Part shown: in pieces, positions 6,665-8,250 of the stretch
Layout: each line of letters opens with the position of its first letter
Position numbering within the stretch: the stretch's first letter is position 1
Origin: Candidatus Syntropharchaeum butanivorans
GTDB taxonomy: Archaea; Halobacteriota; Syntropharchaeia; Syntropharchaeales; Syntropharchaeaceae
Length of the DNA: 64,000 bases
Reading direction: 5' to 3'
Assembly (NCBI GenBank): GCA_001766825.1
Contig: LYOR01000001.1
Span: 287,746-351,745, forward strand
The notes under the pieces: model-generated
What the model saw: the letters and a program-made list of their open reading frames with translations, nothing else
Database searches by the model: none
What the model was told of the DNA's origin: nothing
Translations under genes and position numbers: made by a program

Positions 6665-6697
6665 GTCTTTATCTTGAGTTCAGATTAAAAAAATGTA

Positions 6698-6770
6698 CGC
6701 CCAGGTCGGGATTCGAACCCGAGTCGAAGCCTCGACAGGGCTCCATGATGGGCCACTACACTACCCGGGC
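6698..6770 (-). tRNA. tRNA-Asp (GTC)
   Basis: Minus-strand 73 nt: GCCCGGGTAGTGTAGTGGCCCATCATGGAGCCCTGTCGAGGCTTCGACTCGGGTTCGAATCCCGACCTGGGCG. The 7-bp acceptor stem is GCCCGGG/CCTGGGC, the anticodon loop is CTGTCGA, and the T-loop is GGTTCGAATCC. No CCA is encoded. Confidence 0.9.
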
Positions 6771-6800
6771 ATGGCTATAGTATCCACTGCCCGACCCTAT

Positions 6801-7187
6801 TTAAGTCTTTTCTCTTATAAAGAGTATATGGGTATTGCTCCAGGGCAGGGCCTCCTCTACCCCCATATAATCCTCTCTGCACTCATCACATAGATCCCTG
6901 AGTGATATTGAACCAACCTCTGACGTCCCGGGTATCGTTGAAGCATAAATTATCTCAGGGTCGAGCTCAAGCTCTGCTGCCGCCTCTCTGAGAGTCGGGG
7001 TGATCTTTGGCGCGAAGATCTCCACCTCCTCCATCTCAAGCCCTGCAGTAAAGATCGTGATGCCGGTGCATCCGCAGGCAAAAGAGGATGCACTGAGCTG
7101 TACAACCCAGACCGTTCTCCCTGTGAGCCTGCCAAGCTCCTTCTCAATCGAAGCTCTCCACTCAAGAAGTTTCGCCGGGAGTTTCAA
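6801..7187 (-). CDS. hypothetical Cys-containing protein, last gene of the McrA-like operon
   Basis: 128-aa ORF whose start overlaps the stop of the upstream U32-like gene by 26 nt. It contains CGC and CDEC motifs. No family recognised, and the start is uncertain. Confidence 0.45.
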   Translation of the reverse strand: MKLPAKLLEWRASIEKELGRLTGRTVWVVQLSASSFACGCTGITIFTAGLEMEEVEIFAPKITPTLREAAAELELDPEIIYASTIPGTSEVGSISLRDLCDECREDYMGVEEALPWSNTHILFIREKT

Positions 7188-8214
7188 TCTGTTTCATCTC
7201 CTCCCATGCTGTTCCTTTTCCAACGTAAACCCTCATAACGCGCGCTGCCAGATCCCTGCAGAACCCGCACCTGTGACAGATCTTATCACACCGTTTCCAC
7301 CGCTCCAGTGCGCCATCAAGCTCCTCGTTCGGGATGTAGAATAAGCTCCGCATGCTGCGCGAGTAGTCCAGGATGTTCAGGAGATTGCCGTGATAGCTCC
7401 GCTCTTTATAAGCTGCTATCGTCTCAATTATCCAGCTTACAGGCTGATTTCTACCACTTATCTTGAATGTATCGATCCCTATCTCCTCATAGGCTCCAAG
7501 GTCCTCTGGTCTCACCCAGTTTGCCTTCATGATAAGCCAGGGTTTCTTCACCCTCAATGACCTGCATCTTCGCTGGTAATAGCTGAATGAAATTCTCGGG
7601 TGGGGTGGGGGGCCTGATGTGTGGGATACAACGTTGAAGTCAAAAGGCCTGAACGGGCACTTGTAAAGGCACCCCTCGTTCACAAGAATCCTTATCTCAC
7701 AGGAGACAGCATCCACAATCGCTTCAAGCAGGCGAAAGTCCCTGTTTATACTCGTGTCAGGTGTGATTGCATCTGCCCCAAGCTCCTCATAGAATATGGC
7801 CTTCTCTGGAGAGTCCACAAATGAGATACATGATACAACCACATCGAATGAGAAGTTTTTCGATGCCACCTCGATCAGGTAGGGGTCAGCAAGTGTCACC
7901 GCATCAACACCACATGATGCAAGATCCTCAAAGTATCGCATGTAGAGATTTATACCCTCATCGGTGAGGTGTTTTCCACCCACACACGAGGCGTTCATCA
8001 GGACGTTTATCCTCACACCATGCCGGTGGCAAAGCTCGGTCTGACGCTCTATGAGATCGTGATCATGAGGTGCTTCCCCAAGCCCCTGCCTTCCCGTGGA
8101 TACGTAATCGGATGATCCTGCAATATATACCTCATAAAGGTCGCCTGATCTCGCCTCCAATATCTCCTTAGTCCCGTCAAGGTGCCCGGGCAGTGGTGCA
8201 CAGAGCTTCATCAA
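7162..8214 (-). CDS. peptidase U32 family protein (Fe-S-type, UbiU/RlhA/TrhP-like fold family)
   Basis: 350-aa ORF, colinear by eye with U32 proteins. Matching blocks are N-terminal KLCAPLPG...EVYIAG (cf. ELLCPAG...DAVYIG), GVDAVTLADPYLIE, VNEGCLYKCPF and TFKISGRNQP (cf. KIEGRQRSP). It also has a C-terminal CDKICHRCGFC Cys cluster. Confidence 0.75.
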   Translation of the reverse strand: MMKLCAPLPGHLDGTKEILEARSGDLYEVYIAGSSDYVSTGRQGLGEAPHDHDLIERQTELCHRHGVRINVLMNASCVGGKHLTDEGINLYMRYFEDLASCGVDAVTLADPYLIEVASKNFSFDVVVSCISFVDSPEKAIFYEELGADAITPDTSINRDFRLLEAIVDAVSCEIRILVNEGCLYKCPFRPFDFNVVSHTSGPPPHPRISFSYYQRRCRSLRVKKPWLIMKANWVRPEDLGAYEEIGIDTFKISGRNQPVSWIIETIAAYKERSYHGNLLNILDYSRSMRSLFYIPNEELDGALERWKRCDKICHRCGFCRDLAARVMRVYVGKGTAWEEMKQIETPGETS

Positions 8215-8250
8215 AAGGGTCCAGGCAAAAATAAGGGGAAAAATAAAGAT

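Follow-up and report, generated by a model that had tools for sequence, protein, structure and literature searches.

A U32-DUF5402 gene pair of archaea with methyl- or alkyl-coenzyme M reductase: a candidate tryptophan hydroxylation system behind an acrA gene of Candidatus Syntropharchaeum butanivorans

Which enzyme hydroxylates the tryptophan in methyl-coenzyme M reductase (MCR), and could a gene pair that lies behind a divergent reductase gene of Candidatus Syntropharchaeum butanivorans be involved in it? The DNA considered here (the window) is a stretch of 64,000 nucleotides of this archaeon (assembly GCA_001766825.1, contig LYOR01000001.1, positions 287,746 to 351,745 of the forward strand), whose genus is called Syntrophoarchaeum below. 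On its minus strand, a gene for a protein of the peptidase U32 family overlaps at its 3' end with a gene for a small cysteine-containing protein of the family DUF5402. Both follow acrA, which encodes the alpha subunit of an alkyl-coenzyme M reductase (ACR), a relative of MCR, and a gene for a 198-aa protein.

MCR is responsible for the formation as well as the consumption of almost all biological methane, and for several of its unusual modifications the enzymes have been identified. Oxygen additions among its reported modifications are restricted to 6- and 7-hydroxy-Trp and S-oxy-Met, and according to reviews no enzyme is known for the hydroxy-Trp (PMC7581889). In the anaerobic methanotrophic archaea of group ANME-1, 7-hydroxy-Trp is located at alpha-333, while 6-hydroxy-Trp is found at alpha-429 of Methanotorris formicicus and also in the MCR of ANME-2c and two MCRs of ANME-2d (PMC12413448). 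The U32 proteins UbiU/UbiV, TrhP and RlhA are iron-sulfur (Fe-S) proteins that are required when ring carbons of aromatic or heteroaromatic compounds are hydroxylated independently of O2, with prephenate as the oxygen donor in the case of ubiquinone (PMC10990095, PMC11574389, PMC5727448).

A first reading of this DNA, made from the sequence alone, had suggested that the U32 gene might stand for an anaerobic hydroxylation step tied to MCR, possibly the formation of hydroxy-Trp, and that a U32 linkage to an MCR-family gene was undescribed. Our search of the literature brought up no paper that connects U32 with MCR, with MCR modification or with Syntrophoarchaeum, and no mention of DUF5402; one ANME-3 preprint notes an enrichment of U32 in ANME and gives no interpretation. 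Our comparative genomics lends support to a U32-based anaerobic hydroxylation connected with MCR. That the cassette constitutes a U32 hydroxylase which works without O2 and has the alpha subunit of MCR or ACR as its target appears to us, on circumstantial evidence, only a little short of an even chance. The more specific proposal is tentative and rather doubtful, namely that the gene pair is the MCR/ACR Trp hydroxylase for 6- and 7-hydroxy-Trp and the first U32 system acting on a protein, with oxygen presumably from prephenate, DUF5402 as a new type of adaptor and a dedicated paralogue recruited by Syntrophoarchaeum.

Distribution and genomic linkage of the cassette

We found the U32-DUF5402 cassette in ANME-1, ANME-2a/b/c/d, ANME-3, Methanolobus, Methanococcoides, Methanoliparum, Methanocaldococcus (MJ1657/MJ1658 in M. 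jannaschii), Methanopyrus and Syntrophoarchaeum. At about 70 of 80 loci from species-representative genomes the DUF5402 gene comes right after the U32 gene, its start codon overlapping or abutting the stop codon of the latter; most of the remaining loci are cut by contig ends. The same tight arrangement was seen at 30 of 30 DUF5402 loci. The gene order is extended to U32a-U32b-DUF5402 in ANME-1 and to ferredoxin-U32-DUF5402-truncated U32 (Mk0906) in M. kandleri; in two Alkanophaga species the U32 and DUF5402 genes are unlinked. Proteins with a double DUF5402 domain (230–255 aa) were the top matches in the representative library, and it is these that are unlinked from U32 in Alkanophaga. The genes flanking the cassettes vary and include NrdD, tRNA synthetases, LonB, DJ-1 and a NifH-like protein; the NifH-like neighbour in the metagenome-assembled genomes (MAGs) L147-L149 was rejected as CfbC, as its score is below the cut-off (362 vs. 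402).

The DUF5402 family is very small: among 1.84 billion proteins it counts 50 representatives at 50% identity. Of 301 sampled genomes of the phylum, 65 contain DUF5402 and 180 contain McrA. McrA was found in 61 of the 65 DUF5402-positive genomes, those without it being four incomplete ANME-1 MAGs, and none of the remaining McrA-negative genomes of this sample contains DUF5402. The sole non-archaeal name belongs to a weak relative (P0194 cluster / P0243, E-value of 1.6e-8 to the profile) from a MAG labelled Dehalococcoidia, which could be explained by transfer, mis-binning or a distant family.

Within the MCR lineages the cassette is patchy, being present in roughly half of the Methanosarcinaceae, in 37 of 38 ANME-1 genomes, in 52 of 53 ANME-2d genomes and in ANME-2c, and in none of the members of several whole methanogen families. 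M. acetivorans, which served as a control, lacks DUF5402, as do ten genomes of one Methanosarcinaceae genus with large genomes (probably Methanosarcina). Word-limited protein searches starting from the DUF5402 proteins of M. kandleri and M. jannaschii gave 4 and 14 matches, respectively, none of which bears the name of Methanotorris, Methanothermococcus or M. marburgensis; this does not show that the cassette is absent there. Hydroxy-Trp has been reported absent from M. marburgensis I/II, M. wolfeii, M. barkeri, M. acetivorans, M. kandleri, M. thermolithotrophicus, M. shengliensis and the ethyl-coenzyme M reductase (ECR) of Ethanoperedens. In the hydroxy-Trp lineages covered here, ANME-1, ANME-2c and ANME-2d, cassette and modification thus occur together, and both are missing in M. 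acetivorans; M. kandleri, discussed below, may run counter to this pattern.

In three independent lineages the cassette is placed next to reductase genes. In Syntrophoarchaeum the order acrA-SCP2-U32-DUF5402, in which SCP2 stands for the gene of the 198-aa protein, is found in the window, in L012/L013 and in G139/L053 (the latter two labels denote one genome). One Methanoliparum species has the order mcrBDCGA-U32-DUF5402-MgmA, in which MgmA, the MCR glutamine C-methyltransferase, matches TIGR04014 with 621 bits (cut-off 360), and a second species has mcrG-mcrA-U32-DUF5402. In Methanoperedens, a cassette belonging to clade b of the U32 tree described below lies between a divergently oriented gene for Mmp10 (TIGR03278, 627 bits vs. 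a cut-off of 350), which methylates an arginine of MCR, and mcrBDGA in the order U32-DUF5402-p122-mcrBDGA; in 8 of the 13 genomes with this type of cassette, DUF5402 is found on the same strand and 4.3–5.4 kb from the match to the C-terminal domain of mcrA. As random placement within 5 kb of mcrA in a genome of about 2 Mb would be expected for approximately 0.5–1% of cassettes by our own rough estimate, three independent mcr- or acr-linked lineages among about 12 combinations of lineage and cassette are not expected by chance. None of the cassettes was seen to have genes of F430 biosynthesis (cfb) as neighbours. The position beside mcr operons, MgmA and Mmp10 and the restriction to MCR lineages strengthen the idea, already contained in the sequence-only reading, that an anaerobic hydroxylation is connected with MCR.

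Two further genes near these cassettes were noticed. The product of 122–127 aa (p122/p127; L072:11412-11780, L064:11411-11794) encoded 3' of DUF5402 in the mcr-linked Methanoperedens cassette is conserved and matches no family; it was rejected as a second DUF5402, since hhalign gave a probability of 1.6%. In addition, a gene for a MeaB-type GTPase is located after MgmA in Methanoliparum (L145:6869-7891) and near the cassette at a second-cassette locus of Syntrophoarchaeum (L054:8255-9217), which may be due to chance or to a tie with the loading of B12 enzymes.

The U32 protein and its DUF5402 partner

The U32 open reading frame (ORF) comprises 350 codons from a TTG at 8214; a database protein of 99% identity is 349 residues long, which favours the ATG at 8211 as the start. 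Its product passes the Pfam threshold for Peptidase_U32 (PF01136, 42.4 bits vs. a cut-off of 22.4), with residues 92–150 aligned to model positions 5–64 of 233, i.e. to just the first quarter of the model, and none of the NCBIfam models matched. Against the structure 5D88, phmmer aligned residues 56–201 with chain residues 67–212 (E-value of 1.7e-21). The identity to UbiU, UbiV, TrhP and RlhA of E. coli amounts to 17–21%, so that the alignment "block by block" with UbiU that had been claimed is only loosely true.

The two cysteine motifs noted from the beginning, CLYKC (C182, C186) and the terminal CDKICHRCGFC (C309, C313, C316, C319), are present, and all six of their cysteines are invariant in the archaeal clade. 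Together with C77 and C217 they make up the eight cysteines that are invariant across 11 archaeal relatives; their spacing is CX3C...X30...C, to which C77 and, at the C-terminus, a CX3CX2CX2C cluster (C309-C319) are added. Two columns are common with the Fe-S ligands of E. coli, C186 corresponding to UbiU C169 and C217 to UbiU C193, of which the C217 column is invariant in all 11 aligned sequences. This pattern suggests that the archaeal clade likely binds Fe-S through a ligand set different from the canonical one, and we propose that the eight invariant cysteines would suffice for two [4Fe-4S] clusters.

In the maximum-likelihood tree, which the sequence-only reading had asked for, the archaeal U32 clade is separated from UbiU, UbiV, TrhP and RlhA of E. 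coli with a support of 99/98, the branches of this outgroup being long. Clade a contains the copies of Methanosarcinales, clade b those of ANME-1, Methanoliparum and one Methanoperedens type (support 100/99), while a separate branch, of uncertain position, is made up of the protein of the window and its two close relatives. Orthology to UbiU/UbiV, TrhP or RlhA is ruled out by the low identity, the tree and the domain content.

The copy in the window represents a paralogue specific to Syntrophoarchaeum. In total, the genome of the window encodes four U32 paralogues along with three DUF5402 domains, and these U32 paralogues and the orthologues of other lineages are roughly equidistant with 45–53% identity. 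A second cassette of the same genome (C3:149703-151507) carries a DUF5402-DUF5402 fusion of 253 aa (C3:149703-150464; L047:5704-6465, minus strand), followed by DJ-1/PfpI and LonB genes. Two U32 paralogues occur without DUF5402: one of 341 aa (C4:99268-101509; L048) is encoded directly downstream of a geranylgeranyl-reductase-like gene, and one of 289 aa (C3:57010-58918; L049), which has no C-terminal cysteine cluster, overlaps the gene of an HdrD-like CCG/4Fe-4S protein.

The small protein is a member of Pfam DUF5402 (PF17393, 88.4 bits vs. a cut-off of 25). Its gene starts with TTG, about 10 nt behind a GGAGGAG, and is translationally coupled to the U32 gene via an overlap of 26 nt with the 3' end of the latter, in agreement with the overlapping 128-aa protein with CGC and CDEC motifs reported earlier. 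The cysteines of these motifs, CGC (C38, C40) and CDEC (C100, C103), are the only four that are invariant among 30 family members, and to judge from this conservation they probably form a metal site. The AlphaFold2 model (predicted local distance difference test, pLDDT, 88.8) shows an alpha+beta fold, for which Foldseek returned nothing from the PDB at an E-value of 0.001 or below and the ESM Atlas no usable match; the best hits of VIA-align (FtsK motor subdomain, S6 permutant, MIF-like), with a Z of up to 6.3, are within the range of noise. Since the model has no informative structural relative, a role of DUF5402 as an adaptor or electron relay can at most be inferred.

The reductase of the window and its tryptophan

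The features of the locus are compiled in Table 1. Both the U32 and the small cysteine protein genes were found where the sequence-only reading had placed them, and the neighbouring McrA-like gene is a real one. The genome of the window (1.46 Mb, 79% complete) has four homologues each of McrA, McrB and McrG, and the nearest database proteins bear the labels Ca. Syntrophoarchaeum or Syntropharchaeia. Beyond the tRNA gene, a PMI/PGM fusion gene is next in the row of minus-strand genes, and the synteny acrA-SCP2-U32-DUF5402-PMI/PGM is retained in close relatives only.

Table 1. Features of the acrA-U32-DUF5402 locus in window coordinates
Feature	Position	Strand	Basis
Two proteins without Pfam match	12445-11318 and 11314-10763	(-)	ORFs 5' of the McrA homologue
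AcrA, divergent McrA homologue, 623 aa	8854..10725	(-)	PF02745, PF02249, TIGR03256, PDB alignments to 5N28/3SQG
SCP2-fold protein, 198 aa	8251..8847	(-)	AlphaFold2 and Foldseek
T-rich spacer, 36 nt, between the SCP2-like and U32 genes	8215..8250	(-)	Direct sequence reading
Archaeal-clade U32 protein, 350 aa	7162..8214	(-)	Pfam PF01136, match to PDB 5D88, alignment, tree
DUF5402 small protein, 128 aa	6801..7187	(-)	PF17393, alignment, AlphaFold2 model
tRNA-Asp (GTC), directly 3' of the cassette, marking its 3' end	6697..6771	(-)	ARAGORN

The score of AcrA against TIGR03256 is 482 bits and falls short of the cut-off of 767, from which it is concluded that the McrA homologue is the alpha subunit of a divergent ACR. 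Its B and G partners are encoded on another contig (C4:70053-72209). This matches the split and most highly expressed butane-activating reductase of Ca. S. butanivorans, described as 'group d' (PMC9118554, PMC9081873). In addition, the N-terminus of AcrA is extended by about 55 aa (residues 1–60); this extension has a Lys-rich start, is lacking in other McrA proteins and is conserved in the genus relative L053. Another divergent McrA-like ORF, of 744 aa, was noticed beside the canonical McrA in the Methanoperedenaceae genome G363 (C106:1418-1768), matching PF02249 with 95.6 bits as compared to about 200–220 for the canonical McrAs of this family; a genome with ECR only, which was sought in the Methanoperedenaceae sample by means of divergent McrA, did not clearly emerge, and G228 turned out to be a Methanoperedens.

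When aligned via the McrA of ANME-1 to 3SQG, Trp390 of the window AcrA corresponds to Trp333 of ANME-1, the site of 7-hydroxy-Trp (...YDQLW-FGTYMSGGVGF...); the peptide with Trp390 in the window protein reads ...AVW-YGIYMSGGVGF... W429, the 6-hydroxy-Trp of M. formicicus (...N-GWYLSQ...; 5N28), is placed opposite Asn500. The position of methyl-Arg is likewise an Asn, and the genome of the window has no Mmp10, as is the case in ANME-1; for the 7-hydroxyl of the latter it has been suggested that it occupies the space of the absent methyl-Arg. Owing to the conserved homologue of the ANME-1 residue, the Asn at the methyl-Arg site and the lack of Mmp10, Trp390 is a plausible target site, provided that the cassette acts on the AcrA of the window.

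In the mechanism that we infer from these comparisons, the U32 protein, a TIM barrel with two [4Fe-4S] clusters, would hydroxylate its substrate without O2 by a prephenate-type chemistry of the kind attributed to UbiU/UbiV, TrhP and RlhA. The client of U32-DUF5402 would be the alpha subunit of the methyl- or alkyl-coenzyme M reductase, which would make the cassette the missing hydroxy-Trp enzyme of MCR, and DUF5402 would be its obligatory partner, either as an adaptor for the protein substrate or as an electron relay. The copy in the window might then serve the most expressed butane-activating reductase and modify Trp390 in an enzyme that is devoid of the methyl-Arg site.

The 198-aa protein shows no SCP2 Pfam domain (PF02036) even at an E-value of 10 or below; its AlphaFold2 model (pLDDT 75.7) nevertheless gave exclusively SCP2/UbiJ-SCP2 proteins as top Foldseek matches (probability 1.0, E-value of 6e-5). 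The protein follows AcrA without a U32 gene in the alkane-oxidizing Syntropharchaeia G272 and G329, with several copies per genome, and no homologues were found in 66 ANME-1 genomes. Because its homologues track AcrA and not U32, it is assigned, by distribution, to the ACR module and not to the U32 cassette, and it was rejected as a UbiT-like member of a U32 system in spite of its fold. Its modelled fold makes it a candidate carrier of alkanes or alkyl-coenzyme M (alkyl-CoM) for ACRs.

Competing explanations and known systems

A number of observations weigh against a hydroxylase acting on MCR or ACR. M. kandleri has the cassette, and its MCR is listed without hydroxy-Trp, as judged from targeted mass spectrometry and a structure at 2.7 A. 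For M. formicicus, which has 6-hydroxy-Trp, a word-limited search from MJ1658 gave no Methanotorris protein, by which the absence of the cassette is not shown. ANME-2d has two types of cassette and one reported hydroxy-Trp, and the 6-hydroxy-Trp site is an Asn in all four Syntrophoarchaeum ACRs of the genome of the window. The congener G032 (95% complete, four ACRs) contains neither a gene of the U32 clade nor DUF5402 nor the SCP2 protein. In the DUF5402 protein of the window, the near-invariant residues R48, R83 and R116-P117-D118 are replaced by A, S and W-S-N, and the genus orthologue in L053 shows the same replacements except for an R at 116 (PWSN retained), which suggests that this copy has either been redirected to the divergent reductase or is under relaxed constraint and may be degenerating. 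The canonical four-cysteine motif of U32 (CX6CX15CX3C-type; UbiU C169/C176/C193/C232) is only half conserved: the sequence-only reading had called for a check of these Fe-S ligands, and the two columns of C186 and C217 are kept while the other two are not.

Furthermore, the neighbourhood with McrA-like genes, whose conservation was to be determined, was seen in the three lineages described above; most cassettes are distant from mcr, including those of all complete Methanosarcinaceae genomes, of ANME-1 G094 (215 kb) and of M. kandleri. Occurrence of the cassette independently of McrA genes, which had been named beforehand as a refutation of the coupling, is thus observed at these places and for the second copy in the genome of the window. 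We consider this too strict a standard.

The transcription of the locus has to be considered as well. The 198-aa gene starts 6 nt after the stop codon of acrA and is preceded by a strong GGAGGTGA Shine-Dalgarno sequence. Immediately past its own stop codon, the spacer at 8215-8250 contains oligo-T runs (TTTATTTTT, TTATTTTT), and direct reading finds no Shine-Dalgarno sequence ahead of the U32 ATG at 8211; a T-rich spacer of differing sequence is also present in two relatives (72–74% protein identity). In archaea, oligo-T tracts constitute termination signals, and A/T-rich boxes about 25–30 nt upstream of leaderless starts constitute promoters. The spacer is likely an archaeal terminator combined with a promoter, i.e. 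a boundary of transcription units, and since it is T-rich, lacks a ribosome-binding site and parts the pair from acrA-SCP2, the cassette is probably transcribed from its own promoter and not in one operon with acrA. A scan for bacterial sigma-70 promoters and hairpin terminators was uninformative, as the host is an archaeon. The operon coupling of the U32 pair to the McrA homologue, as originally assumed, is consequently weak, and the boundary between 8214 and 8251 that had been regarded as fatal for it is probably present. In Methanoliparum, however, T8 and T6 runs directly follow the stop codon of mcrA ahead of the U32 gene, so that a terminator behind highly expressed reductase genes is no argument against a functional link, and the boundary appears too strict a test.

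The most serious alternative is that the cassette is a housekeeping or niche hydroxylase unrelated to MCR, with an RNA, a lipid or a coenzyme as its substrate, and that its position behind acrA is an accident at the level of the genus. We regard this as unlikely, though far from negligible: most cassettes have no mcr gene within 10 kb, their flanks are variable, two U32 paralogues of the window genome do without DUF5402 and have geranylgeranyl reductase-like or HdrD-like neighbours, the known U32 substrates are RNA and quinone, and the probable operon boundary at 8215-8250 would fit as well. Such a role is hard to reconcile with three independent lineages in which the cassette lies within about 5 kb of mcrA or acrA, two of them beside MgmA or Mmp10, and the confinement of DUF5402 to MCR-bearing lineages, apart from the four incomplete ANME-1 MAGs, would not be obvious for a function in RNA or lipid metabolism.

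Other explanations accept the connection with the reductase and change the substrate. To our knowledge the oxidation step of alkyl-CoM is not known, which favours a small-molecule system similar to UbiT/UbiU/UbiV, in which the SCP2 protein would present a hydrophobic ligand such as butyl-CoM or another alkyl thioether to U32-DUF5402 and oxygen-free hydroxylation would supply the step from alkyl-CoM towards acyl-CoA. The order SCP2-U32-partner mirrors ubiT-ubiU-ubiV of E. coli, the 198-aa protein has an SCP2 fold with similarity to UbiJ-SCP2, and the locus is that of the most expressed butane-activating reductase (PMC9118554). We nevertheless consider it quite improbable, because in other alkanotrophs the gene of the SCP2 protein comes after that of AcrA with no U32 gene beside it, U32-DUF5402 exists in methanogens and methanotrophs without alkyl-CoM or an SCP2 partner, the congener G032, for which the literature describes alkane oxidation by ACR, has none of the three genes, and the spacer at 8215-8250 suggests separate transcription. 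A tailoring of coenzyme F430, in which the cassette hydroxylates or oxidizes F430 or a precursor to give the variants of ANME and some methanogens, is very improbable in our view. It would be equally compatible with the restriction to MCR lineages and the adjacency to mcr, and modified F430 is known from ANME-1 and Ethanoperedens, but the MCRs of ANME-2 have ordinary F430 although these archaea carry the cassette, and the neighbours MgmA and Mmp10 modify protein, while cfb genes were not seen. A genuine protease of the collagenase type, finally, is hardly credible, as it is backed by database names only ('collagenase-like PrtC family protease'), whereas the eight invariant cysteines and the obligatory metal-binding partner point to redox chemistry, the proteins are cytoplasmic, the archaea that have them are not known as degraders of collagen, and the characterized relatives with conserved cysteines are Fe-S hydroxylation factors.

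A two-gene candidate makes the question of hydroxy-Trp in MCR accessible to experiments with existing genetics. Should the cassette indeed hydroxylate the reductase, the oxygen-free, prephenate-type chemistry of U32 would extend from RNA and quinones to proteins, DUF5402 would gain a function and the structure 5D88 a biological context, and the gene pair would join the list of those needed to obtain fully matured ANME or ACR enzymes in other hosts, ACR relatives being targets of heterologous expression. If the proposal is wrong, the cassette remains an Fe-S system restricted to MCR lineages.

Among the known systems, UbiU-UbiV of E. coli, which acts with UbiT, resembles the cassette in the PF01136 family, in the TIM barrel with Fe-S cysteines (the C186 and C217 columns being common) and in the presence of a second subunit. 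The E. coli ubi locus also has an SCP2 gene next door, but in the window this gene belongs to the AcrA module. Unlike UbiU/UbiV, to which the identity is 17–20% and which fall outside the archaeal clade, the archaeal protein has the additional C-terminal CX3CX2CX2C, and its partner is DUF5402 instead of a second U32 protein, with the exceptions of the U32a/U32b tandem in ANME-1 and the cysteine-less Mk0906 in M. kandleri. RlhA (23S rRNA ho5C2501) and TrhP (tRNA ho5U34) share the U32 domain and perform a prephenate-linked, O2-independent hydroxylation at an aromatic ring carbon of a macromolecule, for which their cysteines are essential. With about 20% identity they are distant from the window protein, for which the proposed substrate is a protein Trp and not a pyrimidine, and RlhA differs in addition by DUF3656, the C-terminal domain of its subfamily (PMC5727448), while Pfam shows PF01136 alone in the window protein.

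The proposed role is also comparable to that of Mmp10, MgmA, YcaO-TfuA and McmA, which are likewise encoded by accessory genes with a patchy, lineage-variable distribution among MCR-bearing archaea, often though not in all cases located beside mcr (PMC11796369); these belong to other families, and the reaction proposed here is an insertion of oxygen and not a methylation or thioamidation. The structural reference is Mk0906 (PDB 5D88), the only solved U32 structure, which is a TIM-barrel homologue of the window protein. It is a truncated paralogue and not an orthologue, with GAITFRDP where the window protein has EGCLYKCP and without the C-terminal cysteine cluster. As Mk0906 is the fourth gene (L009:7372-8076) of the M. 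kandleri cluster ferredoxin-U32-DUF5402-U32', the biological context of 5D88 is this very cassette.

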